From the NCBI GenBank assembly GCA_038244685.1, contig JBBRTD010000002.1, positions 2,924 through 66,923 of the forward strand: a DNA stretch of 64,000 nt. The letters are read 5' to 3'. Below, piece by piece: positions 1 through 40,958 of the stretch (position 1 is the first letter of the stretch; each line of letters starts with the position of its first letter). The notes under the pieces are model-generated. The model saw only the letters and a list, made by a program, of their open reading frames with translations. It had not been told where the DNA came from and made no database searches. The translations under genes and the position numbers were made by a program. This DNA comes from Minisyncoccia bacterium. Lineage in GTDB: Bacteria > Patescibacteriota > Minisyncoccia > Phycocordibacterales > UBA9973.

Positions 1-3000
1 ATTTCTAGTTCGTTTATAGTTCAGGATACATCAAATGTTTCTTCTGTTCCTCCATATTTCAGTATGTATCTTGGCTGGCAAGCAGCTAGTGCTACCGGTT
101 TCTCTTCTTATAAATTAGAATATGCAACTTCTGTAAATAATAGTATATATGGTAGTTATACAACTATCTCTGATGCAAGCTTTCAATTAGTAAATTCAAA
201 TTATTATGTTTACAATAATTTGAACTCGAATCTTTTTTATAGATTTAGATTGGGGGTTGTTGGAACAAATGGAAATACTTCCGTCAGATCAAATTCATTT
301 ATTACCGTTAAACCAGATGGAGTTCAAAACTACAGTGAAGGAGGAGGAGGAAGTATTTCAACTGCTTCAAAAGTTGAGAACGTTGTTGTTACTCAAAATG
401 AAGATAAAACAGTAATAGTTGGTTATAAGGTTACTGATGTTTCTTTCTCTAAAAAAATTAATCCATCTTATGAGGCATATCTTTTCTATAATATTGGTAT
501 GACTTTGCCTAGTAATGCATTAGTTGGAGATACAATAACATTATTAGATGCTTCTAAATTAAAATCATCAGGTTATATTTTAATAAACAATGAAGTTATA
601 AGTTATTCTGGAAAAACAGGGAATACTTTAACAGGTATAATTCGCGGAACTTGGCCAACATTGAATTCAACAGGAAGAACATCCCGTATGAATGCAAATC
701 TATTCTCTGGAACAATTGTTTGGGTTTATGCAAATAGTACAACTCCTGTATCAATTACAAATAATACTATTGCGACTGGTCAAAATAATTCCATTTCTTG
801 GAATACATATAGTGAGACAGGTTTGGCTGGTGGTTCTTATACTAATACAGGAATAAAAGTTATCGTTCATGATAATCAAGATGCATCTTTTGGTCCACTC
901 TCAAGTCAAAACGATTACTCTGAGAATGGAATGCTAAGTGTTTTGGATTTAACAGCTCCTGTTGTTTCATTTAATCAGGCCACTTCTTCTGCTACAGAAA
1001 GTACAACTCCAGTTAACATACCTCTTTATTTAGCTAGAGCTTATCCATTTACAACAACTGTTTCTTATACTGTAACTGGTACTGCAACAAGTGGATCAGA
1101 TTTTACATTAGCAAATGGAATTGCCACAATATTAGCAGGAGAAACAACTACGAATATTTCATTTCCTATCATTAACGATATTTTCAAGGAAAGAGATGAG
1201 ACTGTTATCTTAACGCTCTCTGATCCAATAAATGGAAAAATTGGTGGAAATAGTTCTCATACCTATACTATTATTGATGATGATAATACTTCAACTGTAG
1301 AGTTTGATAGTGTCAGTTCTTCAGGATTAGAGAGTGTTGTTTCTGTGAATATTCCAATAAGTCTTTCTGAAATTTCTCTTGTTGATACAACAGTTAATTA
1401 TTCTATATCTGGAACAGCAACAAATGGTTCTGACTTTATTTTATCTGATGGTATTGCAACTATACTTGCTGGAGCATCAACAACAAGTATCGTTATACCT
1501 ATTACAAATGACACGCTAAAAGAAGATGATGAAACAATAATTATTACTTTATCTGATGTTACAAATAATATTCTTGGTTTAAATTCTGTCCATACTTATA
1601 CCATTCTTAATGATGATTTATTCCCTGTATTAAGTTTCAACAGTGGAACGAGTGAGGGATTGGAAAGTGTAAATTCTATAAATATTCCAGTTTCTATTCC
1701 CGCTGCATATTTAGAAGATGTTACATTTTCTTATTCAGTTACTGGTGGTACTGCTACAGGAGGTGGCGTTGACTATACATTAGAAAATGGGACTTTAACA
1801 ATACCAGCTGGCGAAATTTCAGCAAATATTAATTTAGGTATAATTGATGATGGAGTTTCAGAGCCAACTGAAACTATTATTATAAATTTATCTAACCTTA
1901 TAAATTCAACTCTTGGAGTAAATAGTGTTTACACTTATTCAATACTAGACGATGAAATATCTGGTAATGGTATTAAATCAACCAGCGCTCTTATCTCTTG
2001 GATGACATCAGATCTTTCTGACAGTTTAGTTGAATATGGAACAGTCTCTCCTGGAAATGAAGGAGCTTATAATTTGTCCAAATTTAATGCAGATAAAGTC
2101 TTAAAGCATAATATCTATTTAGGTAATTTAATTCCATCTACCACTTATTACATAAAAACTACTTCAACTGATTTAAATGGTGAGACTGTAGTTTCTACTT
2201 CTGGTTTTACAACTACACCTGGACCAATTATTGGTGGAGTAAATTCTGGTGATATTACAGACAGAGCCGTTACTATTACTTGGGTAACAAATATTCCCGC
2301 TAGCTCATATGTTAATTATTCTACCAACGCAAGTCTATCTACTCCATTTAGATTTGGAAGTGATGATCTAACAACAGAGCACTCTGTTAGTATTGCTAAC
2401 TTAAGTGCTCAGAGTCTTTATTATTATTCAGTTGATGGAATTGATGTTGATTCTAATGCTGGAGAAGATGCAAATGATGGTAATTATTATACTTTCACAA
2501 CAAGTGAAGACCAGGCTGCCCCTATAATTTCTGATATTTCAGTTCCAATAATAACATCAACTCAGGTTGCTGTAGTTTGGAGAACAAATGAATTATCTGA
2601 TGGTAAAATTATGTACGGAACAAGTGCTGGTAATTATGATCATGAGACATCACTTGTTTCTATACCAGAGACAAATCACTTAATTACAATTGGAGGATTA
2701 ACAGGAACTACTATTTACTACTATGTAATTGTTTCTGCTGATAGAAATGGAAATACCGCAACAACAGAAGAACAGACTCTAGAAACAACCGCAATAGAAA
2801 GAGTTATTGTTTCTTCTGGCGGTGGAGGTGGAAGTTCTGGTGTTCCTCAGAGTCTTTATGACGCACTTCTTGCTGAGAATGAAAACTTTAAAGCAAAATT
2901 AAAAGATTTCGATTTTACCATGCCAATTATTTCAAATATTAAAATAGATGAGATTACTGCTTTTAGTGCTACTGTTAGTTTTGATACAGATGAAGATGCT

Positions 3001-4242
3001 ATCTCGTTTATTGACTATGGTAAAGATAATAAGTATGGACTTATGGCTGCAGATAAAAGCTGGTCAAAGAGTCACACTATTAAACTTTATGGTTTAAGTT
3101 TGGGTACAGACTATTACTTGAAAATTAATGCTATGAATAGAGCAAATGATGTCAGTACTTCAGATGAACAAACTTTTAAGACTAAATTTTTAGCTGATGA
3201 TTTAGAGCAATTAAAGAATATAGATAATGTTGAACAATTCCAAGCAGCAATTGAGGCTGCCATTGAGTCAATTTTACCTTCTCTTGTTCCTCCGTTTATA
3301 GATAAACCAGCCATCTCTAATATTACAGAAAGTGGCGCAACTGTTACTTTCCGTACAAATATTAAATCATATCCAATTGTAAATTATACGACTGATGCTG
3401 ATTATGACAAAACAAAAGAAAATCCATATGATGGAGAAATATCTGATACATCAGAAAAAAATATTTCCCATACTCTTTCGCTCGTTGGTCTTAAGCCAAA
3501 TACTAAATATCATGTAATGGTTAAAGCATTTTCTATTCCTCAGGTTATTGGTAAATCCGAAGATTTTACCTTCACGACATCAGCATCAAAAATTCAAGGT
3601 TCTATTGTTGGCATAAAGAAGAATTCATTTACTGTTGTTTGGTCAACAGATGAGATTACTTCATCTATTGTTGAATATAAGAATCTTAAAACAGGAAGAT
3701 CTTCTCGTATTGTCGATGAGGCTAAAAATAAATCTCACTCAATCAAAGTTGAAAATCTTTCTCCCGGTACTTCATACGAAGTAAGTATTTCAGGTATTAA
3801 TGAAAAAGGAAATAAAGTTGAAAGTGGCAGTGCTATAAATGTTAAAACTTCAACTGATAATATTGCTCCTATTATTACAAATATAAAAGTTGATAGTGCT
3901 CTTGTCGTAGCTAGAAATGATAGAGTTCAAACTATTGTTTCTTGGCAAACAGATGAGCCTTCTACTTCAACTGTTTATTTCGGAGAAGGTACTGGTTCAT
4001 TAAATGAAAAACTTTCAAATAAGCAGGAAGATTTAGAGCTTACAAAATCTCATGTTGTTATTCTAACGGCATTAAAACCTGGAACCATTTATCGGTTTAC
4101 GGTTAGTTCAGCTGATGATGCAAATAATATTACAAAGCCACCAGTTCGTACAATCATCACTCCAAGGAAAACAGAATCAATTGTAGATGTTATCTTTAAG
4201 AACTTCGATGAGACATTTAAATTTATGAATAATGTTAAGTAA
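1..4242 (+). CDS. Giant secreted/surface protein with three Calx-beta repeats followed by multiple fibronectin-III-like domains. It is 5'-partial: the reading frame is open back to base 1 (ISSSFIVQDTSNVSS...), and the first Met is at 64.
   Basis: The ~100-aa unit ...VTGTATSGSDFTL.NGIATILAGE.TT.I.FPI.ND...EDDETVILTLSD... occurs three times (aa ~330-640), which is the Calx-beta signature. Downstream are repeated ~90-aa modules with a W..D....V.YG...........H...L.GL.P.T.Y.Y motif (FN3/PKD-like). Two Gly-rich linkers are present. Confidence 0.7.
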   Translation: MSSSFIVQDTSNVSSVPPYFSMYLGWQAASATGFSSYKLEYATSVNNSIYGSYTTISDASFQLVNSNYYVYNNLNSNLFYRFRLGVVGTNGNTSVRSNSFITVKPDGVQNYSEGGGGSISTASKVENVVVTQNEDKTVIVGYKVTDVSFSKKINPSYEAYLFYNIGMTLPSNALVGDTITLLDASKLKSSGYILINNEVISYSGKTGNTLTGIIRGTWPTLNSTGRTSRMNANLFSGTIVWVYANSTTPVSITNNTIATGQNNSISWNTYSETGLAGGSYTNTGIKVIVHDNQDASFGPLSSQNDYSENGMLSVLDLTAPVVSFNQATSSATESTTPVNIPLYLARAYPFTTTVSYTVTGTATSGSDFTLANGIATILAGETTTNISFPIINDIFKERDETVILTLSDPINGKIGGNSSHTYTIIDDDNTSTVEFDSVSSSGLESVVSVNIPISLSEISLVDTTVNYSISGTATNGSDFILSDGIATILAGASTTSIVIPITNDTLKEDDETIIITLSDVTNNILGLNSVHTYTILNDDLFPVLSFNSGTSEGLESVNSINIPVSIPAAYLEDVTFSYSVTGGTATGGGVDYTLENGTLTIPAGEISANINLGIIDDGVSEPTETIIINLSNLINSTLGVNSVYTYSILDDEISGNGIKSTSALISWMTSDLSDSLVEYGTVSPGNEGAYNLSKFNADKVLKHNIYLGNLIPSTTYYIKTTSTDLNGETVVSTSGFTTTPGPIIGGVNSGDITDRAVTITWVTNIPASSYVNYSTNASLSTPFRFGSDDLTTEHSVSIANLSAQSLYYYSVDGIDVDSNAGEDANDGNYYTFTTSEDQAAPIISDISVPIITSTQVAVVWRTNELSDGKIMYGTSAGNYDHETSLVSIPETNHLITIGGLTGTTIYYYVIVSADRNGNTATTEEQTLETTAIERVIVSSGGGGGSSGVPQSLYDALLAENENFKAKLKDFDFTMPIISNIKIDEITAFSATVSFDTDEDAISFIDYGKDNKYGLMAADKSWSKSHTIKLYGLSLGTDYYLKINAMNRANDVSTSDEQTFKTKFLADDLEQLKNIDNVEQFQAAIEAAIESILPSLVPPFIDKPAISNITESGATVTFRTNIKSYPIVNYTTDADYDKTKENPYDGEISDTSEKNISHTLSLVGLKPNTKYHVMVKAFSIPQVIGKSEDFTFTTSASKIQGSIVGIKKNSFTVVWSTDEITSSIVEYKNLKTGRSSRIVDEAKNKSHSIKVENLSPGTSYEVSISGINEKGNKVESGSAINVKTSTDNIAPIITNIKVDSALVVARNDRVQTIVSWQTDEPSTSTVYFGEGTGSLNEKLSNKQEDLELTKSHVVILTALKPGTIYRFTVSSADDANNITKPPVRTIITPRKTESIVDVIFKNFDETFKFMNNVK

Positions 4243-10019: not shown

Positions 10020-11459
10020 ATGGCCCTAAATAAACCTAACAAAATTCAGATAATTAAGTATGCTCCACCACCACCTGACCTTCCCACTCTTGGTAGAGTA
10101 GATCCTGGAGATGTGGCTTTTATCGGCCGAACAAACTATGTTGCTTCTTTAGAGGAAAAGAGGTTTGTTTTTGGTATTAAGCGTATCGATAGAAGACGAC
10201 ATATGTATATTATCGGCAAGTCAGGAGTAGGTAAATCTAAACTTCAAGAATTAATGATTCGTCAGGATATAGCTTATGGTCATGGTGTTTGTGTCATTGA
10301 TCCTCACGGAGAACTTATCGAAGATATATTAAATTTTATTCCAGAAGATCGCATTGAAGATGTTTGTATTATTGATCCTGGGGATGTAGAATATCCTTCT
10401 TCTTTTAATCCACTTTCAAACATTGATCCTACTTTTAAACATCAGCTTACTCAAGGATTGATAGAAGTTTTACGTAAACAATTTGGTTCGAATTGGTCTC
10501 CGCGTCTTGAGCACGTTTTTCGCTTTACCGTTCTTGCTTTGCTTGATTATCCTCATGCCACAATGCGTGGAATGATTTCAATGCTAACCGACCGAAATTA
10601 TCGTCAGAAGGTTGTTGAATATATACAAGATGATATGGTTAAACGTTTTTGGGCTATTGAATTTGCTGATTGGTCTGAGAAATTTGATACGGATGCGATT
10701 ATTCCTTTGGTGAATAAACTTGGGCAGTTTTTGTCTGATCCGATGCTTCGTAATATTTTTGGACAGAAAGAAAATAAAATTGATATTGAAAAATTAATGA
10801 ATGAACAAAAAATTCTTTTGATTAATCTTTCAAAGGGAAAAATAGGGGAGGAGAATTCCTCTTTCTTTGGGTCAATGTTTTTAACAAAAATTAAACAGGC
10901 TGGTATGGCCCGCGCCAAATTAGAGCCAAAAGACCGCGCTGACTTTTATCTTTATGTTGATGAATTTCAGAATATTGTGACAGATACATTTGAGAATATT
11001 CTTTCTGAAGCTCGTAAGTATGGATTGAACCTTGTTATTGCTCATCAATATATTGCTCAGCTTTTACCGAAAGTTCAACAGGCGGTACTTGGAAATGTCG
11101 GATCAATCGTTACTTTTCGTGTTGGCGGTGATGATGCCACTAAGTTGAAGCCAGAGTTTGCTCCAGTCTTTGATGTAAAAGATATGATTAACTTAGGTGT
11201 GGGAGAATTTTATATTAAAATGACAATAGATGGTGAAAGTTATGATCCATTTTCTGGAGAGACATTGCGTGTTCTTCCTGCGACACATCCATCTTATAGA
11301 CAAAAAGTTATCGATGCGTCACGCCGTAAATATTCTATTTCCTCTGGTGATGCTCAGAAGCTAATTATCGAAGAAGAAGCTACTATCATAAGATCAGCTC
11401 AAGAAAAAGCTGCTATTTCAGAAAATAAAGAAGAAAAAGAAAATCAGCCTCTTATTTAG
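10020..11459 (+). CDS. VirD4/TraG/TrwB-like P-loop ATPase (type IV secretion coupling-protein-like DNA-binding ATPase domain), with no N-terminal TM anchor
   Basis: Walker A IIGKSGVGKS, a DPHGE motif shortly after it, and Walker B YLYVDEFQN followed by AHQ. It is paralogous (~50% identity by eye) to the 13039-15243 protein. Confidence 0.55.
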   Translation: MALNKPNKIQIIKYAPPPPDLPTLGRVDPGDVAFIGRTNYVASLEEKRFVFGIKRIDRRRHMYIIGKSGVGKSKLQELMIRQDIAYGHGVCVIDPHGELIEDILNFIPEDRIEDVCIIDPGDVEYPSSFNPLSNIDPTFKHQLTQGLIEVLRKQFGSNWSPRLEHVFRFTVLALLDYPHATMRGMISMLTDRNYRQKVVEYIQDDMVKRFWAIEFADWSEKFDTDAIIPLVNKLGQFLSDPMLRNIFGQKENKIDIEKLMNEQKILLINLSKGKIGEENSSFFGSMFLTKIKQAGMARAKLEPKDRADFYLYVDEFQNIVTDTFENILSEARKYGLNLVIAHQYIAQLLPKVQQAVLGNVGSIVTFRVGGDDATKLKPEFAPVFDVKDMINLGVGEFYIKMTIDGESYDPFSGETLRVLPATHPSYRQKVIDASRRKYSISSGDAQKLIIEEEATIIRSAQEKAAISENKEEKENQPLI

Positions 11460-11551
11460 TTCATAAATCAACTTAATATTATTCATTTGATTTTTAACGT
11501 AAAGTGTTACAATTGTCAGATAGGGTCGCATTTTAATTATCTATATATTTT

Positions 11552-11857
11552 ATGGTATTTATATATACAACATGTAAAAACATGGATGAGGCACAGGAGC
11601 TCGGGGGTTTGATTATAAGTAAGAAAATAGCCGCATGCGTGGATTTTTGGCCAATATCATCCTGCTTTAGCTGGAAGGGTAACCTTCAATGTGTATCTCA
11701 GGCAATGCTTTTAATCACGACCTTTGAATCTAAACTAGAAAGTGTTAATGAAATTATTTCACAAAATCACACCTACAGCATTCCTCTTATAGCAGGAGTT
11801 GATGTGAGGCGTATAAATCATCCCTATAAAGAATGGATGATGGAAGAAATAATATAA
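11552..11857 (+). CDS. cutA: Divalent-cation tolerance protein CutA
   Basis: YTTCKN.DEAQELGGLIISKKIAACV...SWKG......E..LLITT......V...I...H.Y..P.I matches the CutA1 fold consensus at ~100 aa. Confidence 0.75.
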   Translation: MVFIYTTCKNMDEAQELGGLIISKKIAACVDFWPISSCFSWKGNLQCVSQAMLLITTFESKLESVNEIISQNHTYSIPLIAGVDVRRINHPYKEWMMEEII

Positions 11858-12294
11858 TGTCTAATCCTATGAATTCTAAAAAAATTTTAATTTTTGGTGT
11901 GTTTGATGGTGTTCATGATGGACACCTGGCTTTTATTAATGAGGCTAAAAAGAAAGGGGATCATCTTGTTGCTATTGTTGCCCGTGATAGTATTGTTAAA
12001 GAATTAAAGGGTAAAATTCCAAAATATAATGAAGTGGAGAGAATAAATGAGCTTTTGCTGATACCTGGGGTAGATTTAGTTTTTTTAGGTGATGCGAAGA
12101 CAGGAACATATAGTATTTTAAAAGAAATAAAACCCGATATTATATTTTTAGGTTATGATCAGGATGCTTTATTTGTTAATTTAAGTGAATCAATTAAAAA
12201 AGGTATTTTGCCAAAGATAGAAATCATTCGGGGTAATTCATATAAGCCAGAAATTTTTCACTCATCGATTTTAAATATAAATAAAAATATCTGA
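11857..12294 (+). CDS. Cytidylyl/adenylyl-transferase-like nucleotidyltransferase (HxGH family; FMN adenylyltransferase-like or glycerol-3-P cytidylyltransferase-like)
   Basis: (H/T)xGH motif FDGVHDGH near the N-terminus with a Rossmann-like pattern. The start is chosen at the ATG overlapping the cutA stop (TAATG); the ORF track extends to 11833. Confidence 0.6.
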   Translation: MSNPMNSKKILIFGVFDGVHDGHLAFINEAKKKGDHLVAIVARDSIVKELKGKIPKYNEVERINELLLIPGVDLVFLGDAKTGTYSILKEIKPDIIFLGYDQDALFVNLSESIKKGILPKIEIIRGNSYKPEIFHSSILNINKNI

Positions 12295-12324
12295 AATTTA
12301 ATTAAATTTCAGATATTTTTTTTA
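12288..12324. terminator. Bidirectional terminator hairpin (atctgaaattt aattaa atttcagat + T-run) between convergent genes
   Basis: Perfect inverted repeat followed by a run of 8 T residues. Confidence 0.65.
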
Positions 12325-12945
12325 TTAGATTCTTTTAATTGATTCACTTCTTTTTTCAATTTTCCACCATTTAATTATTAGCGGTAGGGTATCACCAATG
12401 CAGTAAATAAAAAATGCTACAGGAAATATGACATTTTTTAATTGCCAGTCAGGGGCATTATAAATTGAAAGAATGTAAACAACTAAAAAAAGAACGTAGC
12501 TCGTGAGTGTTATACGTGACCCTGGTTTTTTCCAAGATTTTTTCATTTGAGGCCATCCTGCAATAATTTCGGCAATTACAGCTAGAGTTAACCCTAATAA
12601 ATTCGATCCTGAGTAAAGCCATAAGAAAACAACAACAAACACAATAGATAGTGTTATAGACTCATCCTTGGTCCATCTCTTTTTTTTATCATACTTTATA
12701 AGTAGTATTGATACTGAGAATGAGCCTAGGATGCACCCAAAAACCAACATGAGGGAAGAGCTTTGTTCTTCAATTGCTGTTATATATACCAATACATCAA
12801 GTATTGACCATAACAGATTTGTGAAAAAACTTTGACTCTTCATTCCTCGCTTTTTGAATATTCCAACTATGAGAATTGCATAAGCTGAAATTGTAACAGT
12901 AAGGATTAACCAATCCATCGATGTTACTGGGAATATTTTTTCCAT
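12325..12945 (-). CDS. Hypothetical integral membrane protein (6 predicted TM helices)
   Basis: Hydrophobicity pattern only. Confidence 0.4.
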   Translation of the reverse strand: MEKIFPVTSMDWLILTVTISAYAILIVGIFKKRGMKSQSFFTNLLWSILDVLVYITAIEEQSSSLMLVFGCILGSFSVSILLIKYDKKKRWTKDESITLSIVFVVVFLWLYSGSNLLGLTLAVIAEIIAGWPQMKKSWKKPGSRITLTSYVLFLVVYILSIYNAPDWQLKNVIFPVAFFIYCIGDTLPLIIKWWKIEKRSESIKRI

Positions 12946-13038
12946 AATGAGTCTTTTCTAAACTCTAAGCCCAGGGGTGTATTTTGTCAACAGTAATTTG
13001 CTTATGCTTCTCTTTTATTGTTATAATAAGAGTAATAT

Positions 13039-15243
13039 ATGGAAAAAGAAATTCCTCATAATCGTGACATAACTTATTTTGCTAAGACGAACTTTCGTAA
13101 TAGTAATGACATCTTTGGTATAAAAAGAAAAGATCGTCGCCAGCATATGTATATCCTCGGTAAGTCAGGTACTGGTAAATCCGTGCTCCTCTCTAATCTT
13201 ATTGTACAGAATATTCAAAACGGAGAAGGTGTCTGTGTGGTTGATCCTCATGGAGAGCTTGTCGAGGAAATTTTACATCTTATTCCAGAACATAGAACTA
13301 AGGATGTTATTTATTTTAATCCAGCAGATGCAGATTTTCATATTGGATTTAATGTTATACAGCTAGATGATCCTAAATATAAACACTTAGTAGCATCAGG
13401 ACTCATGGGAATTTTCACTAAGATTTGGGCGAATGCTTGGAGTTCTCGTATGGAATATATTTTGAATAATGCAATTCTTGCTCTTCTTGATACTCCAGGG
13501 ACAACACTATTGGGAATTCCTCGTCTTCTTGTCGACAAAGATTATCGTCAAATGATAATTGGAAATTTGAAAGACCCTGTTGTTAAAGCTTTCTGGGTCC
13601 ATGAATATGAACAATGGCGTGAACAGTTCCGAAATGAAGCCATTGCTCCTATTCAGAATAAAGTTGGTCAATTCCTTTCAACTTCAATCATTCGTAATGT
13701 TGTGGGTCAGCCAAAATCAACTATCGATATATTTAAGATAATGAATGAGGGTAAGATTTTTCTTGTAAACGTTTCAAAGGGACGTATTGGGGAAGATAAC
13801 TCTGCTCTTTTGGGTGGAATGATTATTACAAAAATTCAACTTGCCGCTATGGAACGTGTTCGTATTCCAGAGGATGAACGAAAAGACTTTTATCTTTATG
13901 TTGATGAATTTCAAAACTTTGCGACTGATGCCTTTGCCAATATTCTTTCTGAAGCTCGTAAGTATCGTCTAAATCTTACTGTCGCCCACCAGTACACAGC
14001 TCAGCTTGAAAATAAAGATGGTTCGAAGGTTCGTGATGCTGTTTTTGGCAACGTTGGAACAATGATAATCTTTCGCGTAGGAGCTGATGATGCAGACTTT
14101 TTGGAAAAAGAATTTGAGCCAGAATTTACAGCTCAAGATTTGGTTAATTTACCGAACTACAATATTTATTTAAAGCTTATGATTGATGGTATTACCAGCC
14201 GACCTTTTTCGGCAACAACCTTACCTCCAATGAAGGTAGATGCAACTTCCGGGGTAAAGGATAAAATTATAGAATCTTCTCGTAAACTTTATACAAGATC
14301 ACGTGAAGAAGTTGAAGGTGAGATATCTAGATGGAGTGGAATGCTTCAAGTTGGAGAAGGTGAAGCTAAGTATAAGGCTGACTGTTCAAATTGTGGTAAA
14401 TCTACGATGGTTCCTTTTGAACCTCAAGAAGGAAGACCTGTCTACTGTAAAGAATGTATGTTCAAAATTAAAAGTGGTGAACTTAAGCCGGAAACTGGTT
14501 TCGTTGCTTCTCGTTCTTCTCGCCAAGAAGAGAAGGTTTCGACTGCACCCTTGGCTGCCCTTGGTATCGAATTTCCTGTAACTGACATGAATTTTAGAGT
14601 TTCCAAGAATAAAGAACAAGCAAAAATATTAGTACAAAATAATCACGAAAATAGTAATCATTCTAATTATAATAAAAATAGTCATACGAATAATGTATCC
14701 AATAACCATGGTGATCTAAATAAAACTCCATATGTTAAACAAGAGAAGCGACACACTGGCCCGTCTCCACTTTTAAAAGGTTTATTGCAAAAGATTGGAA
14801 TAAGTAACGATAAAAAAGAAGTTCCAATTAAGGCAGAATCTATCGAAGTAAAAAAGGAAGTACCGGCTTCTATTTCTCTTTCTTCTCTTAAAAAAGAAGA
14901 GCCTAAAGAAGCTAGGAAAGATTTTGTTGTTGCAGTAAAGGAAGCCTCTGAGGAGAAAAAGGCTTCTCTTAAGGATTTACTTGCAAAGACAGCCAATCAT
15001 ATAAATCCGAACATTATTTCCAAAAAAGAAGAAGTAAAAATAGAAAATAATAAAGTAGAAGAATCTAAAAAAGTTGAGTCAGCTCCTGTTTTGGTCCCAG
15101 AAATAAAAGAGGAAATTATTGTTCCTAAAATAAATGAAGAGAAAATAAAACAAACAGATACTATTTCAGATTCGCTCTCTTGGCAAAAACGTAAAACAAA
15201 AAAAGAAGTTCCTGAGGATGTACTTCGCAAAATTTTAGAATAA
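13039..15243 (+). CDS. VirD4/TrwB-like P-loop ATPase paralog with a C-terminal CxxC...CxxC zinc ribbon and a ~250-aa Lys/Glu/Ser-rich low-complexity tail
   Basis: Walker A ILGKSGTGKS, a DPHGE motif, and Walker B YLYVDEFQN followed by AHQ. The zinc ribbon is CSNCGKSTMVPFEPQEGRPVYCKECMF. The tail is rich in K, E, S and N. Confidence 0.55.
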   Translation: MEKEIPHNRDITYFAKTNFRNSNDIFGIKRKDRRQHMYILGKSGTGKSVLLSNLIVQNIQNGEGVCVVDPHGELVEEILHLIPEHRTKDVIYFNPADADFHIGFNVIQLDDPKYKHLVASGLMGIFTKIWANAWSSRMEYILNNAILALLDTPGTTLLGIPRLLVDKDYRQMIIGNLKDPVVKAFWVHEYEQWREQFRNEAIAPIQNKVGQFLSTSIIRNVVGQPKSTIDIFKIMNEGKIFLVNVSKGRIGEDNSALLGGMIITKIQLAAMERVRIPEDERKDFYLYVDEFQNFATDAFANILSEARKYRLNLTVAHQYTAQLENKDGSKVRDAVFGNVGTMIIFRVGADDADFLEKEFEPEFTAQDLVNLPNYNIYLKLMIDGITSRPFSATTLPPMKVDATSGVKDKIIESSRKLYTRSREEVEGEISRWSGMLQVGEGEAKYKADCSNCGKSTMVPFEPQEGRPVYCKECMFKIKSGELKPETGFVASRSSRQEEKVSTAPLAALGIEFPVTDMNFRVSKNKEQAKILVQNNHENSNHSNYNKNSHTNNVSNNHGDLNKTPYVKQEKRHTGPSPLLKGLLQKIGISNDKKEVPIKAESIEVKKEVPASISLSSLKKEEPKEARKDFVVAVKEASEEKKASLKDLLAKTANHINPNIISKKEEVKIENNKVEESKKVESAPVLVPEIKEEIIVPKINEEKIKQTDTISDSLSWQKRKTKKEVPEDVLRKILE

Positions 15244-15263: not shown

Positions 15264-16712
15264 ATGATTAATTTAAATAAAAAATATACAACTTTTATTT
15301 TAATAATAGTGTTTTTTGTTTGTTCTCGATCTGTTTTTGCAAATTTTGAAATTACAGAAATAATGTATGACTTAGATGGAACTGATTCAGATCGAGAGTG
15401 GGTGGAAGTTAAGAATGTCGGTTCATATAGTGTTGATTTGTCTAAGTGGTATCTTTTTTCAGATAATTCTAAACATAGTCTTGTTCCGCAAGGTAATTCT
15501 ATTGTTCCATCTGGTAGTTATGTAATTATTGCTCAAAATCCATCTAAATTTAATGTAGATTGGCCAAACTTTTCAGGTTTATTATTTGATAGTAGCTGGA
15601 CTGGACTTAATAATGAAAGCGATTCTTTGTCTCTTAAAGATCCAGATTTGAATATACAAAGCCCTATTTCATTTAATTCCAGTTTAGGAGGAGACGGTGA
15701 TGGTAATTCCTTGCAGCTTATAGGTAGTTTGTGGAAGGCGGCCAGTCCTACTCCTGGTTTAATTAACGAGGTAACTAATGATGACAATTCAAATGCTATT
15801 ACTCAAAGTAGCTCTAGCGTGAATACAGATATTTCGAATTCAAATATTATAGATAAAAAAGAATTAGAAAATCCTAAAATCGTAACACAAATTATTACTA
15901 GTAAAATTGTGACAGCTGGAGTTCCGTTTATTATCGATCACGTAACTATTGGATTGAAAAAGGAAAAAATTGTTTTAGGTAAATTTACTTGGAATTTTGG
16001 AGATGGAATGCTGAGAGAATCTACTACTTCCGATCCTTTTGAATATATTTATAAATATCCTGGTGAATACGTGCTTAACCTTTCTTATTGTAGTTCTGTC
16101 TTTTGTATTAAGCCTGATGCTACAGATAGAATAATAGTAAAAGTTATTTCTTCTGGTGTAAATATAATATCTATTGGTAGCAAAAGCGACCCATATATAG
16201 AAATTGAGAATAATTCAAATTATGAAATAGCTTTGTATAATTGGATTATTAAGGGGAGTAACCATACTTTTACTATACCTCAAGGTATGATAATTCTCGC
16301 GAATAAAAAGTTAAAGTTATCACCTATTGTCACAGGTTTTGATTTCAATGATTTAAGCTCTGTAAGTATAATTGATAAAACTGGGCAAGTCTTTTCAACT
16401 TATCCAAATACAAATTATTCATTATTAAAAAATTATTCTAGTAAAAATTCCCCAAATAATTATATTAAATCAGATTCACCAAAAATTAAAGAAACTCAAA
16501 ACACACAGGAAGTTATCAATTTAAATGACCTTGGTTCTAGTGCTGAGAGCTCAAGTAATTTATTATTAAACAATAAATTGTTAATATATTTTGGATTAGC
16601 TAGTGTTATTTTAATTGGAATTGCGAGTGTTGTATTATTTCGCCGTAAAAATAATTACCCAGATTACATCGAGAAAGAGGTGAGTGCTAATGATATGGTA
16701 ATCATTGAATGA
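15264..16712 (+). CDS. Secreted lamin-tail-domain (LTD) protein with two LTD-like modules and a C-terminal TM anchor
   Basis: Signal peptide. EITEIMYDLDGTDSDREWVEVKNVGSYSVDLSKWYL matches the LTD consensus (EI.YNP.G.D...EWIEL.N....VDLSGW.L). A second module is YIEIENNSNYEIALYNWII. The C-terminal hydrophobic helix is followed by RRKNN. Confidence 0.65.
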   Translation: MINLNKKYTTFILIIVFFVCSRSVFANFEITEIMYDLDGTDSDREWVEVKNVGSYSVDLSKWYLFSDNSKHSLVPQGNSIVPSGSYVIIAQNPSKFNVDWPNFSGLLFDSSWTGLNNESDSLSLKDPDLNIQSPISFNSSLGGDGDGNSLQLIGSLWKAASPTPGLINEVTNDDNSNAITQSSSSVNTDISNSNIIDKKELENPKIVTQIITSKIVTAGVPFIIDHVTIGLKKEKIVLGKFTWNFGDGMLRESTTSDPFEYIYKYPGEYVLNLSYCSSVFCIKPDATDRIIVKVISSGVNIISIGSKSDPYIEIENNSNYEIALYNWIIKGSNHTFTIPQGMIILANKKLKLSPIVTGFDFNDLSSVSIIDKTGQVFSTYPNTNYSLLKNYSSKNSPNNYIKSDSPKIKETQNTQEVINLNDLGSSAESSSNLLLNNKLLIYFGLASVILIGIASVVLFRRKNNYPDYIEKEVSANDMVIIE

Positions 16713-19022: not shown

Positions 19023-20537
19023 TTATTTTAATATTTTAATATCAGCCCCGATTGAGTTTAGTCTTTCGGCTATTTCTTCATAGCCTCGATTAATCATATA
19101 AACATTGCGAAGGATAGATGTGCCTGTTGCTCCAAGCATTCCAATAAGGATTATCATTGCGGGACGAAGAGCAGGGGGGCAGACAACTTGAGCTGATTTA
19201 AGGGGTGTTCCGCCTTGTATATAGACTCTATGAGGGTCAGCGAGAGTTATATTGGCCCCTAATCTATTAAGTTCAGTGAAATATATAGCTCGATTCTCAT
19301 ATAGCCAATCATGAATCATGGTCTGGCCTTTGGCTTTAATAGCGATAGGAACAAAGAACGGTAGATTATCCATATTTATTCCAGGATAAGGATTAGCATG
19401 AATTTTGTCTTCTAAAGCAGTTAATTTAGAAGGGAATATTTGTAAATCAACAAGATTTGTTTTTCCATTGTAAGATTTATAGCTTTTGAGTATTTTATAT
19501 TTTAAATTCATTCTCTTTAATTTTTCAAGTTCAAGAGAAAGGAAATCAATCGGACATCTATTAATGTTAAGCTCTGAATCAGTCGCAATTGCAGCTGAAA
19601 TAAACATCATTGATTCGATGGGGTCTTCACTGTTAGTATATTCAACATCCATATTAATATCTTTGACTCCGTGAACTACTAGAGTTGAAGTTCCAATCCC
19701 ATCGATTTGAACTCCAAGTGTTTCTAGAAAGAAGCAAATTTCTTGGACCATGTAATTAGCACTAGCAAATCTTATAGTTGTAGTGCCATCAATTTTTGAA
19801 ACGGCAGTTAGTATGTTCTCACAGGCTGTGTCTCCAGCTTCATACATTACAATATCAGCGGGCTTTAACTTTTTGCTTTCTATTTGGTATTCATCGTTGG
19901 TAGTTTTAATTTTTACCCCTAGATCTTCTAAGGCATAAGTATGTGCACTAATTGTTCTTTTCCCAAGCTTACATCCTGAAGCATGAGGAATAGAGAAAGA
20001 GGGAAGTAAATGAATAAGAGGGCCGATAAGCATTATGACTGAACGAGTTTTGATAGCAGACTCTACGTTCATTTTATCTAGAGAAAATTTGGTAGGTGGA
20101 GTAATTAAAACAGAATTATTATTTATCCACTTAACAGAGACCCCAATACTTTCAAGTATTTCAATAACTCGATAAACTTCTTCTATTCGAGCAATTCCAT
20201 GCAGGGTTGTTTTACCTTTATTTAAAAGAGAAGCACAGAGTAATCCGACTGCTCCATTCTTCGAGAAGTTTGTATCAATACTTCCGTGCAATTTATTTCC
20301 ACCCTTAATTTCAAAATCGATAGAGGAATTTATAGATACAATTTGATGTTCTAGTACTTTGCTTATTTTTGATAATAATTCTGTTGTAAAATTTTGTTCA
20401 CCTTTCTCCATGCGGGGAATAGAACTTTGGGATGTCTCTAATGCTTTAGCGAAGGCTTCTTGAGTCATACCTCGGCGCTCTCGAAGTTCCTTAATAAAGT
20501 AACCAATTTTTTGTTGCTCTGTTTGTTTTGATTTCAT
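19023..20537 (-). CDS. murA: UDP-N-acetylglucosamine 1-carboxyvinyltransferase (MurA) with an N-terminal XRE-type helix-turn-helix domain fused
   Basis: N-terminal ~60 aa (LRERRGMTQEAFAKALETSQSSIPRMEKGEQNFTTELLSKISKVL) is a Cro/C1-type HTH. The remainder has the EPSP-synthase fold, with the MurA active-site loop HASGCKLGKRTISAH (compare E. coli PGGCAIGARPVDLH, Cys115). Confidence 0.75.
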   Translation of the reverse strand: MKSKQTEQQKIGYFIKELRERRGMTQEAFAKALETSQSSIPRMEKGEQNFTTELLSKISKVLEHQIVSINSSIDFEIKGGNKLHGSIDTNFSKNGAVGLLCASLLNKGKTTLHGIARIEEVYRVIEILESIGVSVKWINNNSVLITPPTKFSLDKMNVESAIKTRSVIMLIGPLIHLLPSFSIPHASGCKLGKRTISAHTYALEDLGVKIKTTNDEYQIESKKLKPADIVMYEAGDTACENILTAVSKIDGTTTIRFASANYMVQEICFFLETLGVQIDGIGTSTLVVHGVKDINMDVEYTNSEDPIESMMFISAAIATDSELNINRCPIDFLSLELEKLKRMNLKYKILKSYKSYNGKTNLVDLQIFPSKLTALEDKIHANPYPGINMDNLPFFVPIAIKAKGQTMIHDWLYENRAIYFTELNRLGANITLADPHRVYIQGGTPLKSAQVVCPPALRPAMIILIGMLGATGTSILRNVYMINRGYEEIAERLNSIGADIKILK

Positions 20538-21606: not shown

Positions 21607-21696
21607 TTGATTTTATACGGATTTCTAGTATACTATTCCTATTACATTGTCGGAGTGGCAATGGAATATTTTTAAAACACTAAGTGTGTTTTTGTT

Positions 21697-21778
21697 GCCG
21701 GAGTGGCGGAATTGGTATACGCGCGCGACTCAAAATCGCGTCTCGCAAGGGATGGAGGTTCAAGTCCTCTCTCCGGCA
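21697..21778 (+). tRNA. tRNA-Leu (anticodon CAA), long variable arm
   Basis: GCCGGAGTGGCGGAATTGGTATACGCGCGCGACTCAAAATCGCGTCTCGCAAGGGATGGAGGTTCAAGTCCTCTCTCCGGCA forms a class II cloverleaf with anticodon loop CTCAAAA. Confidence 0.85.
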
Positions 21779-21779
21779 C

Positions 21780-22913
21780 ATGCAGAATAAATCACTTTCT
21801 TATATAGAAATTTCAGAAGGTAACTTAATAAATAATATCAAGCAATTTAGAAGTTTATTGAAGAATAAAACTAAAATTGCCGCAGTTATAAAAGCTAATG
21901 CTTATGGTCATGGGGATAAGACTGTAGCAAAAATTGCGAGTCCTTATGTGGATTATTTCCAGGTAGATAGTATCGAAGAAGCAGAAAGGGTAAGAAGTAT
22001 TAGCAAAAAGCCAATCCTTATTTTTGGTTATTTAAACGATGACGGAGTAAGGAGATCTGTGAAAATCAATGCAATAATTTGCGCTTTCGATTTAATTAAT
22101 CTTTTAAAAATTAATCATACCGCGAAAATTTTAAAGAAAAAAATAAAAGTTCACTTGGCAATCGATTCATATTTAGGGAGAGAGGGTATAATGCCTAATC
22201 AAGTAGAGATAATAATAAATGAAATTAAAAATCTAGAAAATATAATCTTAGATGGTGTGTATTCTCACTTTGCGAATATTGAAGATACCATGAATTCAAC
22301 TCATGCCAATAGGCAAATTGAAGTTTATCACAACTGCGTTGAACTATTTAGAAAAAATGGTTTTGCAAATATTAATACTCATATCTCAGCGACTTCTGGT
22401 ATTCTTGTCTATGAAAAAGGTGAAAATTTGCATAATATTGTACGTCTTGGTATTGGACTTTATGGCATGTGGCCAAGTGAACATTTAGAGTACTTGAATA
22501 AAAAGAAAATAAATTTAAAGCCAATATTAAAATGGGTGACTCACGTAGCGCAAGTAAAGATAATTCCAGCCAATCATCCAATAGGATATGGGCTTACCTA
22601 TATTACAAAAAAGGTCACAAAAATAGCAGTTATACCCCAAGGTTACTTCGATGGATTAACTCGCTCTCTTTCAAATAACGGAGAATTTTTAATAAGAGGC
22701 AAAAAATCAAAGATATTAGGTAGAGTTGCTATGAATATGACTGTAGTTGATGTATCTCACATTAAAGGTGTTTTGCCTGATGATGAAGTTGTAATTATTG
22801 GTATACAGGGTAAGTCTAAAATTACGGCAGAAGAAGTTGCAAAAAGGTCAGATACAATAAACTATGAAATCACTACGAAAATAAGCGCCTTATTGCCTAG
22901 GGTTATAGTGTAA
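21780..22913 (+). CDS. alr: Alanine racemase
   Basis: PLP-lysine motif AVIKANAYGHG. The start is chosen at the Met just after the tRNA; the ORF track's 21684 start runs through the tRNA gene. Confidence 0.85.
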   Translation: MQNKSLSYIEISEGNLINNIKQFRSLLKNKTKIAAVIKANAYGHGDKTVAKIASPYVDYFQVDSIEEAERVRSISKKPILIFGYLNDDGVRRSVKINAIICAFDLINLLKINHTAKILKKKIKVHLAIDSYLGREGIMPNQVEIIINEIKNLENIILDGVYSHFANIEDTMNSTHANRQIEVYHNCVELFRKNGFANINTHISATSGILVYEKGENLHNIVRLGIGLYGMWPSEHLEYLNKKKINLKPILKWVTHVAQVKIIPANHPIGYGLTYITKKVTKIAVIPQGYFDGLTRSLSNNGEFLIRGKKSKILGRVAMNMTVVDVSHIKGVLPDDEVVIIGIQGKSKITAEEVAKRSDTINYEITTKISALLPRVIV

Positions 22914-34826: not shown

Positions 34827-36884
34827 TTGGAAAATAGCCCTTTTTATGTCATTATTAAGGAATATATGGAATCATCAAAAAATAAAAAGACATCTGTAAA
34901 GTCATTAAAAAGTAATGTTAATGAAAGAGGGTTACGTACTGTGGTAAAAAATCTTCTCAAGCAAGATAAAAGACTTTGGACTTCGGAAGGTAAGTTGATT
35001 GAAAATAAATTGATTGAATTTGTACAAAAAGATGATGAAAATATTATTAAACTTCTATTAAGTGATTCCTTAACAAAAGATGCTTTTTTCCAAAAAATTT
35101 CTTCAATTTTTGTATTTAAAAAAGATGACTTTATTAACTTTGAAACGATGAGTGAGTTTTTGAATGGTTCTTATACTAATTATAGTAAACATATAGGATT
35201 GGCAAATAATTACTCTTTATTAAAAAATGCCGGTGAAGTAGTTCTGAATTTTCCATACAAGGATTGTTTTTTAGAAGGAGGGCAAGAAAAAGTAAGTGAA
35301 GGGAGAGATGAAATATTTTACAATAAAATTCTTGCAAGAGAAGAAATAAATAGACTTGAAGAAGAAAAAGTTTTTACGAACTGGATTAAATATACTGAAA
35401 AAGGGGGGAAAAAGGTGGATTCATTTGACCATAAAAAAGACAATCTTATTTTAAGAGGAAATAATTTATTAGCTTTATATTCATTGCTTCCAAAATATAG
35501 AGGACAAATAAATTTAATTTATATTGACCCACCATACAATACTGGAACAGATGATTTTAATTACAATGATAATTTTAATCATTCTAGTTGGCTAGTATTT
35601 ATGAAGAATAGATTGGAGGTAGCAAAAAAGTTATTAAGAGATGACGGTGTTATTTTTGTTCAGTGTGACGACCACGAACAAGCTTATTTGAAGGTTGTAA
35701 TGGATGAAATTTTTAATGGTGGATTTATAAATAGTATTGCTGTAAAAATGAGTGAGTTGTCTGGGACAAAAATGGCTCATTATGATAAAAAATTACCTAA
35801 AATAAAAGAATATTTATTAGTATATAAAAAAGTAACGTTTAAATTAAGAGATGTTAGAATAATAAAAACTGAGTGGGATGACGAATATAATTTGTATCTC
35901 GAGAATTTTGATGATAATTTATTAGATTTAATTACCGAGTCGGATGAAAATAAAATTGATGAAGTAAATAAAAAACTATTAAATGTAAAAATTTTAGGGA
36001 TAAAAGAAGCATTTAATAAATATAAAAATAAAAATGAAGATTTTGATGATTTTAGATTTAGGAATATAAACTTTATTGTTAGAACATCGCCATCATCCAG
36101 TGTAAAAAAAATTGCTGATATTCTTAATATCAAAAATCAAATTGTTTATGCATTGCTTTCAAAAAGAGACAAAAATATTATTATAATTCGTACAGATTAT
36201 AATAAAGCAGTAAAAGACCCAAGAATACAGATTGTCTTTGCTCGAGATTCTTTTGAACAAAAAATAGGCGATATGTGGACAGATATAAATACTACAGGTT
36301 TACATACTGAGGGGGGAGTTACTTTAGAAGGAGGAAAAAAACCCGAGAAATTACTTAACAGAATTATTGAAATGAGCACAAAAATTGGTGATATTGTTTT
36401 AGATTATCATTTAGGAAGTGGAACGACCTGTGCTGTTGCTCATAAGCTGGGTCGTAAATATATAGGTATTGAGCAATTAGACTATGGAAAAGATGACTCA
36501 GTTATAAGGTTGAACAATGTTATTAAGGGAGACAAATCAGGCATATCAGGGTTAGCTGATTGGAAAGGAGGAGGGTCATTTGTTTATGCTGAACTTGCAC
36601 AATGGAATGAAGAATATATCCAAGAAATAAAGAAAGCCAAAACAGTTAAAGATTTGACTAAAATCTATGAAAAAATGATTAAAGAAGCATTCTTTGTTTA
36701 TACTTTTGACCAATCAAAATGGAATAATAAAAAATTTGAAGAGCTTACAATTGATAACCAAAAGAAAATTCTTTTCGAGCTTCTTAATATGAATCATTTA
36801 TATATAAATTATAAAGATATAGAGGACGCGACTTATAAAATTTCTAAAGAAGATATAAAACTCAATAAAAATTTCTATGAGTAG
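34827..36884 (+). CDS. mod: Type III restriction-modification system methyltransferase (Mod), N6-adenine, beta-class
   Basis: Motif IV IYIDPPYNTG occurs before motif I (DYHLGSGTTCAVAHKLGRKYIGIE), with a target-recognition region in between. The 8-bp overlap with the downstream res gene is typical of Type III mod-res operons. Confidence 0.85.
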   Translation: MENSPFYVIIKEYMESSKNKKTSVKSLKSNVNERGLRTVVKNLLKQDKRLWTSEGKLIENKLIEFVQKDDENIIKLLLSDSLTKDAFFQKISSIFVFKKDDFINFETMSEFLNGSYTNYSKHIGLANNYSLLKNAGEVVLNFPYKDCFLEGGQEKVSEGRDEIFYNKILAREEINRLEEEKVFTNWIKYTEKGGKKVDSFDHKKDNLILRGNNLLALYSLLPKYRGQINLIYIDPPYNTGTDDFNYNDNFNHSSWLVFMKNRLEVAKKLLRDDGVIFVQCDDHEQAYLKVVMDEIFNGGFINSIAVKMSELSGTKMAHYDKKLPKIKEYLLVYKKVTFKLRDVRIIKTEWDDEYNLYLENFDDNLLDLITESDENKIDEVNKKLLNVKILGIKEAFNKYKNKNEDFDDFRFRNINFIVRTSPSSSVKKIADILNIKNQIVYALLSKRDKNIIIIRTDYNKAVKDPRIQIVFARDSFEQKIGDMWTDINTTGLHTEGGVTLEGGKKPEKLLNRIIEMSTKIGDIVLDYHLGSGTTCAVAHKLGRKYIGIEQLDYGKDDSVIRLNNVIKGDKSGISGLADWKGGGSFVYAELAQWNEEYIQEIKKAKTVKDLTKIYEKMIKEAFFVYTFDQSKWNNKKFEELTIDNQKKILFELLNMNHLYINYKDIEDATYKISKEDIKLNKNFYE

Positions 36885-40795: not shown

Positions 40796-40958
40796 TAGAT
40801 ATCAGGAGTATGGCGAGAGCACTGGCTCAACGACCCATCAGCAACCCTTAGAGATAAGAAGGTGCTAAATCCAGCCAGATGATACACAAGTATTATCATG
40901 GAAAGATAAGACTAGTCATCTGTATCTTTCCTCTTATTAGAGGAATTTTTTAATTTAA
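40796..40958 (+). promoter_or_regulatory. SAM-I (S-box) riboswitch with intrinsic terminator, in the leader of metK
   Basis: gATATCAGGAG...GGCGAGAGCACTGGCTCAACGACCCATCAGCAACC...AAGGTGCTAAATCCAGCC...AGATGATAc matches the S-box core blocks (ATCAAGAG / GG.GGAGGGACUGGCCCGAUGAA.CCC.GCAACC / GGUGC.AAUUCC.GCAG / AGAUGAG). The P1 helix is TATCA/TGATA. A terminator (ttcctct tatt agaggaa + tttttt) lies at 40928-40951, just before metK. Confidence 0.7.

Follow-up and report, generated by a model that had tools for sequence, protein, structure and literature searches.

How two ATPases related to type IV coupling proteins (T4CPs) came to stand without a membrane anchor in a housekeeping chromosome, and what they may do there, is the question raised by a 64,000-nucleotide stretch of a Minisyncoccia bacterium (GenBank assembly GCA_038244685.1, contig JBBRTD010000002.1, positions 2,924 to 66,923 of the forward strand), the whole of which is referred to as the window in the following. 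To judge from the names given to near-identical proteins, this window is part of the housekeeping chromosome of Candidatus Nomurabacteria (Paceibacteria, Patescibacteria or candidate phyla radiation, CPR), with six tRNAs, an S-adenosylmethionine (SAM) riboswitch, aminoacyl-tRNA synthetases, Mur enzymes, LepA, TsaD and YchF among its contents. The two open reading frames (ORFs) in question encode paralogous proteins, here termed A and B:

10020..11459 (+), paralogue A, 479 amino acids (aa), a T4CP-type ATPase with a nucleotide-binding and an all-alpha domain and no transmembrane (TM) helix, recognized by ORF, Pfam, AlphaFold2 (AF2) model and Foldseek
13039..15243 (+), paralogue B, 734 aa, a T4CP-type ATPase followed by a zinc ribbon and a disordered tail, recognized by ORF, Pfam and PDB sequence match

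T4CPs are ATP-driven motors which usually deliver DNA or proteins to bacterial type IV secretion systems. A and B are motor modules that have been separated from, or have lost, a membrane domain which their relatives carry, and both are conserved as an ancient pair.

A and B belong to the coupling protein branch of the FtsK-HerA superfamily

The original prediction had read both plus-strand ORFs at these positions as paralogous VirD4/TrwB-like ATPases of roughly 50% identity, a reading which is borne out by a BLASTP alignment with 48% identity over 416 aa (E 2e-139) and by the core motifs which it had quoted, FGIKR.DRR.HMYI.GKSG.GKS, DPHGE, YLYVDEFQN and AHQY, all of them present and invariant across 42 aligned sequences of the A/B family. 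A protein identical to B (P0001) is present in NCBI.

Both proteins lie above the Pfam gathering thresholds for TrwB_AAD_bind, T4SS-DNA_transf, TraG-D_C and DUF87, the HerA central domain. The E-values for A are 3.4e-9 (TrwB_AAD_bind), 2.3e-8 (T4SS-DNA_transf), 5.4e-8 (DUF87) and 6.5e-6 (TraG-D_C), and B matches TrwB_AAD_bind with 2e-15; in bits, A and B score 36.5 and 57.1 respectively against the threshold of 20.5 of TrwB_AAD_bind, and 33.8 and 27.1 against the 20.1 of T4SS-DNA_transf. TrwB is also the top PDB sequence match of both proteins (B: E 1.8e-8), with the P-loop, the Walker B DE and the HQ motif in register. The catalytic motifs and the helical insertion of A are located as follows:

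10215..10238 (+), Walker A of A, GKSGVGKS, aa 66-73, with G66, K67, S68, G69, G71, K72 and S73 invariant, aligned with the TrwB P-loop
10947..10973 (+), Walker B region of A, YLYVDEFQN, aa 310-318, with D314 and E315 invariant, aligned with TrwB LFIDEL
13159..13182 (+), Walker A of B, GKSGTGKS, aa 41-48, 97% column identity in 120 orthologues, aligned with the TrwB P-loop
13891..13917 (+), Walker B region of B, YLYVDEFQN, aa 285-293, from the alignment to A, TrwB and orthologues
10428..10760 (+), all-alpha insertion of A, aa ~137-247, seven helices in the AF2 model as assigned by DSSP, through which the TrwB_AAD_bind match runs

In the AF2 model of A, which is of moderate confidence (pLDDT 68, pTM 0.71), the helices 137-158, 161-175, 183-190, 192-199, 205-221, 224-238 and 241-247, as assigned by DSSP, form an insertion in the RecA-like core, between the strands 115-118 and 265-269, which corresponds in position and size to the all-alpha domain of TrwB. 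The only significant Foldseek matches of this model in PDB are TrwB, DotL and Cagbeta, followed at lower rank by HerA (4d2i). Profile, PDB and fold searches alike favour T4CPs over an unrelated P-loop family.

With HerA, FtsK and VirB4, A and B have the P-loop core in common, and it is this core alone which matches HerA (DUF87, 33.6 and 36 bits); the HAS-barrel of HerA was not found in either protein, nor the FtsK gamma domain, nor a Pfam match to FtsK_SpoIIIE at E <=0.01. That A or B replaces FtsK was considered and rejected, as there is no FtsK signature and a separate ftsK is annotated in TM7x. On the basis of the Pfam, PDB and fold matches and of the distance from every NCBIfam equivalog, A and B are members of the T4CP branch of the FtsK-HerA superfamily which stand outside its named families.

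The missing anchor is a DUF8128 membrane domain

The lack of N-terminal TM helices, likewise part of the original prediction, is real. The best 19-aa Kyte-Doolittle windows reach 1.0 in A and 1.23 in B compared with 2.51 in the neighbouring membrane protein, no TM helix is found in either, and, since the ORF list gives the longest possible frames, which cannot be extended upstream, an overlooked N-terminal anchor is excluded in both.

An exhaustive search over 1.84 billion cluster representatives retrieved 21,768 relatives at E <=1e-3, 5,689 of them at E <=1e-30. Many of the best 150 representatives of 50% clusters have lengths of 700-1,200 aa and an ATPase which begins at residue 250-450, and about 59 of these 150 carry an N-terminal extension of 250-450 aa homologous (E down to 1e-50) to a stand-alone 459-aa gene. 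By precomputed labels, this extension is the Pfam domain PF26449, DUF8128; many of the extensions, the longer ones, open with a TM helix. The ATPase core of A and B is 45-57% identical to that of the fused patescibacterial proteins.

In about 23 Paceibacteria loci A is preceded by the stand-alone DUF8128 gene, with just the gene of a 179-aa TM protein between the two (examples are L061:1721-3100 and L061:3097-3636, and also L084-L086); still further upstream are secDF and the gene of a Sigma70_r4/HARE-HTH protein. Berkelbacteria-like genomes encode two DUF8128-ATPase fusions (~845 aa and 1,028-1,180 aa), one or two genes apart, which flank the Sigma70_r4/HARE-HTH protein with secDF near, so that they have their neighbours in common with the Paceibacteria loci with stand-alone DUF8128. 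Neither the stand-alone DUF8128 proteins nor the 179-aa TM proteins match Pfam or NCBIfam, the Pfam set used being one without PF26449; the DUF8128 profile has no sequence match in PDB, and DUF8128 is unmentioned in the literature searched.

Where the motor was separated from the membrane domain can be read from the start of A:

10032..10085 (+), N-terminal peptide of A, KPNKIQIIKYAPPPPDLP, which matches the conserved DUF8128-ATPase linker of fused relatives

When A is aligned with the fused proteins and with the C-terminal ends of the stand-alone DUF8128 family, KPNKIQIIKYAPPPPDLP is in register with TPNIVW..KKGEPPANLP and PHIKR.ESRK.GPPAGL. The linker motif is thus present at the C-terminal end of the stand-alone DUF8128 proteins too, and B begins just downstream of it. 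Because the start of A coincides exactly with this conserved linker, A and B are anchor-less motor modules, derived by fission of a gene or by loss. Their lack of an anchor did not arise independently, as relatives carry the DUF8128 membrane domain either fused or next door. The representatives split into an A-type clade with a short C-terminus ending in F-x-E-P-[IL]-[IL] and a B-type clade with a long tail; each clade holds fused and unfused members, from which it follows that the duplication is older than the loss of the anchor.

As modelled by AF2 with good confidence (pLDDT 79.6), a fused DUF8128-ATPase best matches full-length VirB4/TrwK with E 4e-13 over ~950-1,025 columns, at a TM-score of just 0.25-0.3, followed by TrwB with a TM-score of 0.6 over the ATPase. 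On this model, DUF8128 might perhaps resemble the N-terminal domain of VirB4.

The C-terminal extensions of A and B

The original prediction had also noticed a zinc ribbon and a K/E-rich tail in B. Both are substantiated, the ribbon by scores beyond the curated cut-offs (zf_Tbcl_2: E 3.9e-14, 52.5 bits versus 27; TIGR04272: E 3.5e-15, 55.4 bits versus 36) and the tail by the composition of the last 254 aa, which contain 40 K, 32 E, 24 S and 21 N. The segments behind the ATPase are:

14371..14466 (+), CxxC-x17-CxxC zinc ribbon of B, aa 445-476, CSNC-x17-CKEC, Pfam zf_Tbcl_2 and TIGR04272
14479..15198 (+), K/E/S/N-rich variable tail of B, with an orthologue column identity of 14-57% and indels
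15199..15240 (+), conserved C-terminal peptide of B, KKEVPEDVLRKILE, the last 14 residues, 88% column identity
11445..11456 (+), C-terminal peptide QPLI of A (family consensus EPLI-COOH), from the ends of A orthologues

Along B, column conservation in 120 orthologues amounts to 95-100% in the core consisting of the all-alpha domain (AAD) and the ATPase and to 93-94% in the zinc ribbon, falls to the low values of the tail and rises again in the terminal peptide KKEVPEDVLRKILE, with LRKVLE or LRKILE (…VLRKV/ILE-COOH) at the end of 107 of the 120. Of the 120 orthologues closest to A, nearly all have -PLI at the end, in most cases as EPLI, and DUF8128-fused A-type representatives end in F-x-E-P-[IL]-[IL]. 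Terminal peptides which stay invariant behind a variable linker are typical of docking motifs, and the C-termini of both proteins look adaptor-like, an inference from their conservation profile.

The zinc ribbon is present in all 120 B orthologues and absent from all 120 A orthologues and all 119 fused relatives, so that the arrangement of a ribbon after the ATPase is limited to the B lineage of Paceibacteria. Domains of the CxxC-x17-CxxC type (TIGR04272/PF23477) bind zinc in small proteins of Methanosarcina mazei (PMC12704099), where the domain is a stand-alone small protein, whereas in B it occurs as a single copy behind a T4CP ATPase.

Conservation, gene order and cysteine-rich neighbours

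The 120 closest A orthologues are 81-97% identical to A, and 120 B orthologues of the same architecture are 70-86% identical to B. Among species representatives of GTDB, 80 Paceibacteria loci carry A at 68-94% identity. Gene order was mapped in 81 related loci, 37 of which extend at least 7.5 kb on both sides. B is found on the same strand as A in 44 of the 81, is present in 24 of the 37 with such flanks and directly adjoins A in eight. A and B represent an ancient paralogy under strong purifying conservation and not a local oddity. In one Paceibacteria sub-lineage (L022, L024, L027, L030, L053, L058 and L069) the pair is inserted between dnaK and dnaJ, the gene order being PaaX-like, dnaK, B, (X568 copies, rsmE), A, dnaJ.

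X568 is the label coined here for an unnamed family of ~570 aa with a median of 34 cysteines, the most frequent neighbour of A and B in Paceibacteria. Its genes, 145 in all, are spread over 60 of the 81 loci, are co-directional in every case, form arrays of as many as six and lie between A and B in 27 loci; L029:2161-3930, L041:11258-13003 and the whole of L070 are examples. The proteins have neither a signal peptide nor a match to a Pfam or NCBIfam family, and are cytoplasmic, with an N-terminal CxxC...CPxCR zinc ribbon, a repeat of it near the C-terminus and a final CxxC-x17-CxxC. The profile of the B zinc ribbon matches 28 of 130 X568 proteins at i-E <0.01. Against PDB the X568 profile finds generic LIM-type zinc fingers only, which match X568 as well as the B ribbon does.

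Relation to known coupling proteins and distant relatives

With TrwB of R388, VirD4, Cagbeta and DotL, A and B share the RecA-like domain with Walker A, Walker B and HQ motif and the all-alpha insertion of ~110 aa, at an identity in structural alignments of just 11-16%. They differ from these coupling proteins in that they lack the N-terminal TM domain, are not located beside relaxase or T4SS (type IV secretion system) genes and occur as two co-conserved chromosomal paralogues, one of which, B, adds a zinc ribbon and a K/E tail.

Outside Patescibacteria, 657 plasmid records match the core of B. On the Embleya sp. plasmid NZ_CP108778.1, the 812-aa protein WP_331738717.1 combines an ATPase 33% identical to that of B (E 5e-64) with a DUF8128 domain (E 1.4e-9), and is anchored by a TM segment at ~aa 34-56, while A and B have neither the DUF8128 domain nor the gene cluster. 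Upstream of it a PrgI-family protein and a 643-aa ATP-binding protein are encoded, downstream a replication-relaxation protein and an NlpC/P60 hydrolase; this gene setting is a monoderm conjugation cluster. By homology, A and B descend from such DUF8128-anchored conjugative T4CPs. The phage profile phrog_5156, which spans DUF8128 and ATPase, matches A (E 1.5e-56) and B (E 6.3e-62) over its ATPase half, and distant copies are encoded by Bacillus jumbo phages, such as gp156 of Bacillus phage G.

A further anchor-less relative of B, of 395 aa and 39.8% identity (E 6e-94), is encoded on the Sulfitobacter mediterraneus plasmid NZ_CP081110.1 (L087, 99994-101181), between a DUF3768 gene and transposases and, in the stretch shown, far from T4SS genes.

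Published distribution of coupling protein homologues in Patescibacteria

The near-universal existence of such T4CP homologues in Patescibacteria is already published: a survey of 3,035 genomes reports 5,713 T4CP homologues in 2,918 of them, about two per genome, and VirB4 in 2,417 (Quinonero-Coronel et al., 2025; PMC12102498). A and B are among these homologues. Table S3 of that survey lists the B orthologue KKP60588.1 together with a second T4CP match six genes off, both by the 't4cp2' profile with ~63% coverage and not near virB4; KKP60588.1 is 80% identical to B of the window, and the partner six genes away is the A orthologue. The survey does not describe the paralogy of A and B types, the missing or split DUF8128 anchor, the ribbon and tail of B, the terminal peptides or the cysteine-rich arrays, and the rest of the literature searched is equally silent on the existence of two paralogue types, on the fission from DUF8128, on the lineage with the zinc ribbon, on the terminal peptides and on the arrays.

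The absence of T4SS components had suggested a non-canonical role to the original prediction, such as DNA uptake or transfer, or an interaction of epibiont and host; this is too strong an inference, since that absence covers 64 kb only. Close relatives encode VirB4, TrsD, VirB3 and VirB2 clusters elsewhere in the genome beside their A and B orthologues (PMC12102498, Table S3); the genome of KKP60588.1 also contains VirB4 and an additional 't4cp1' match (same table), and in one part of Table S1 of this survey 24 of 25 Nomurabacteria assemblies are VirB4-positive. That the 't4cp1' matches are the real T4CP was considered and rejected, as their coverages are multiples of 1/110, which indicates a short profile, uninformative without the sequences.

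A proposed function and its alternatives

The reading which we prefer, at a rough probability of 45%, is that A and B are cytoplasmic T4CP motors, hexameric and docked in trans, which recruit substrates and act together with a T4SS encoded elsewhere in the genome. They represent an old pair of T4CP homologues, spread across Patescibacteria, whose ancestral form is composed of an N-terminal TM helix, a DUF8128 domain of ~350 aa and the ATPase; this form persists in other Patescibacteria and in actinobacterial conjugative plasmids, and Paceibacteria have split off the DUF8128 part or lost it. A, B or a mixture of both would assemble into an ATP-driven hexameric ring, which would be held at the membrane in trans by the DUF8128 protein, by the VirB4-type T4SS that relatives encode elsewhere, or by both. 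A macromolecular substrate would be recruited via the all-alpha domain and the C-terminal extensions, with the short tail and EPLI as the recruiting end of A and the zinc ribbon, the flexible K/E tail and the terminal VLRK(V/I)LE as that of B. Candidate substrates would be the cysteine-rich zinc-ribbon proteins whose genes form arrays next to the pair in relatives. Redundancy between A and B would explain why transposon sequencing (Tn-seq) found a homologue to be non-essential.

Several observations weigh against this proposal. Pfam scans of ~45 ORFs of the window, including every ORF of at least 400 aa, found no VirB4, VirB6, relaxase or pilin, in agreement with the original prediction that no other T4SS gene is present there, and profile searches of the 64 kb found neither a DUF8128 gene nor that of the 179-aa TM protein nor a cysteine-rich X568 gene. 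The scores against NCBIfam T4CP equivalogs stay far below all of the cut-offs, the best being 55 bits compared with 250-650. Merely 148 of the 5,713 T4CP homologues are located near virB4, and in Southlakia the T4SS is essential and the T4CP homologue dispensable by Tn-seq (both PMC12102498). An essential T4SS cluster without recognizable coupling protein or relaxase has been described (Wang et al., 2023). The further T4CP-profile matches in the genomes of relatives might serve the T4SS instead of A and B. Finally, the very strong conservation and the housekeeping synteny would also fit a core function independent of a T4SS.

Such a function is the content of the alternative that the pair has been exapted as a T4SS-independent core translocase, working with DUF8128 partners where these are present and acting on DNA at the membrane, in segregation, clearance or the cytoplasmic step of uptake, or on another polymer. 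We hold it to be unlikely on balance, if a serious contender. T4CP homologues are more widespread than VirB4 and almost never near virB4, no relaxase accompanies them, and the authors of the survey state that exaptation of T4CP homologues cannot be ruled out, with the dispensable Southlakia homologue beside an essential T4SS as a case in point (PMC12102498); the very high conservation of A and B and their housekeeping synteny across classes, with secDF, the Sigma70_r4/HARE-HTH protein, dnaK and dnaJ, are consistent with it. Against it, the T4CP-typical all-alpha substrate-binding insertion has been kept, the FtsK gamma domain and an FtsK_SpoIIIE match are absent, and TM7x has a separately annotated ftsK. 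In none of the loci examined is A or B linked to a gene for competence or segregation, and comEC is dispensable for growth of Southlakia. We considered VirB4-negative genomes with T4CP matches as proof of T4SS independence and rejected them, because these assemblies retain stray T4SS matches (TrsD, VirB3) and are probably incomplete rather than T4SS-free.

The neighbourhood of the X568 genes suggests that A and B might act as cytoplasmic remodelling ATPases for these proteins, which would be bound through zinc-ribbon modules or terminal peptides and then unfolded, assembled or handed over to chaperones or an export route. Their frequency and uniform orientation beside the pair, the position between A and B in 27 loci, the matches of the B ribbon profile to 28 of 130 of them and the dnaK - B - X568 copies - A - dnaJ order of one sub-lineage all point in this direction; but X568 is absent from the window and from the vicinity of the fused paralogues in Berkelbacteria-like loci, where the ATPases are conserved nevertheless, the ribbon similarity is weak and generic with LIM fingers matching equally well, and the adjacency may reflect lineage-specific synteny only. 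This function appears improbable to us. A wider proposal, speculative and rather unlikely, although less so than remodelling as such, is that A, B, the DUF8128 membrane protein and the cysteine-rich arrays might constitute an undescribed, Patescibacteria-wide and VirB4-independent machine, in which a hetero-oligomeric T4CP-derived motor on a DUF8128 anchor in trans would recognize diversified zinc-ribbon clients, or nucleic acid which these bind, by the B ribbon and the invariant C-terminal peptides and would move the clients to the membrane or through it.

Two further explanations carry very little weight. A component of anti-phage defence, that is a HerA- or mad8-like ATPase with neighbouring effectors, is brought to mind by matches of the PADLOC model mad8 of the MADS system to A (E 1.3e-11) and B (E 3.4e-16), by several defence-associated HerA models which match weakly and by the related phage proteins, phrog_5156 and gp156 of Bacillus phage G among them. 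It is highly improbable all the same, as no neighbour tested matches any PADLOC model and the other mad genes were not found among them, the type III restriction-modification system of the window is 20 kb away, and the genes are near-universal, vertically conserved and embedded in housekeeping synteny, while defence islands are typically patchy and variable. The idea which we regard as least credible is that of a decaying, non-functional remnant of an integrated conjugative element. Although the nearest relatives outside Patescibacteria are plasmid-borne T4CPs and neither protein has the membrane domain, the two reading frames are undamaged, their catalytic motifs do not vary, conservation in the AAD and ATPase core of B amounts to 95-100% in 120 orthologues, synteny is stable over dozens of species, and the A/B locus in the window has no integrase, no relaxase and no shift in composition, its GC content of 0.33-0.35 being the same as in the rest of the window.

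Genes around the pair and other features of the window

The genes between A and B, predicted originally as cutA, a nucleotidyltransferase and a membrane protein, could be specified, and a surface protein gene follows B:

11552..11857 (+), CutA1 divalent-cation tolerance protein, Pfam CutA1 E 1.1e-23, recurrent near A
11833..12294 (+), cytidylyltransferase-like nucleotidyltransferase, Pfam CTP_transf_like E 2.9e-12, TIGR00125 above cut-off
12325..12945 (-), polytopic membrane protein of 206 aa, of an unnamed family recurrent near A and B
15264..16712 (+), Lamin-tail-domain (LTD)/PKD surface protein with a C-terminal TM segment, Pfam LTD E 7e-18

A member of the CutA family is encoded in 22 of the 81 related loci, mostly immediately after A, and the cytidylyltransferase-like gene, which overlaps the end of cutA in the window, adjoins CutA in 13 related loci. 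The 206-aa membrane protein has no match in Pfam or NCBIfam and is matched (E 1.4e-11) by the profile of a neighbour family, 'f3_196', which occurs in 24 related loci. The LTD/PKD gene begins 20 bp past B, as a gene of this kind likewise follows B in the closest relatives (L001, L004, L005, L008, L009, L012, L017, L018 and L082). A scan for promoters and terminators found no excess over shuffled sequence.

Further away from the pair, a 1,392-aa predicted surface protein (64-4242, +) is composed of six purple-acid-phosphatase N-terminal domains, Calx-beta and fibronectin type III repeats. A MurA-type enolpyruvyl transferase of the EPSP_synthase fold (19023-20537, -) carries an N-terminal XRE-type helix-turn-helix, a fusion also found in relatives (L001). 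tRNA-Leu(CAA) (21697-21779, +) is located inside the called alanine racemase ORF (21684-22913, +), so that the true Alr start must lie downstream of the listed GTG. The type III restriction-modification system (34827-39495, +; Mod 34827-36884, Res 36877-39495) occupies the part of the window with the lowest GC content (0.28-0.29) and may be a horizontally acquired island. The SAM riboswitch (Rfam RF00162, 50.4 bits; 40796-40909, +) is located directly 5' of the S-adenosylmethionine synthetase gene (40967-41932), and a 530-aa ORF (55416-57008, +) with tRNA genes on either side has no Pfam match and weak OmpA/TssL-like NCBIfam matches (E 0.0025-0.01).

Significance for the biology of Patescibacteria

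Patescibacteria account for much of the diversity of bacteria and are host-dependent, and their T4SS, the sole one known to be essential for growth, has no coupling protein assigned. The family of A and B, encoded in nearly every genome of the phylum with about two copies, is among its most conserved uncharacterized proteins. To recognize in these copies two old and separate types of paralogue, each with an invariant terminal peptide of its own, sharpens the description 'T4CP homologue, possibly exapted' into questions which can be tested.

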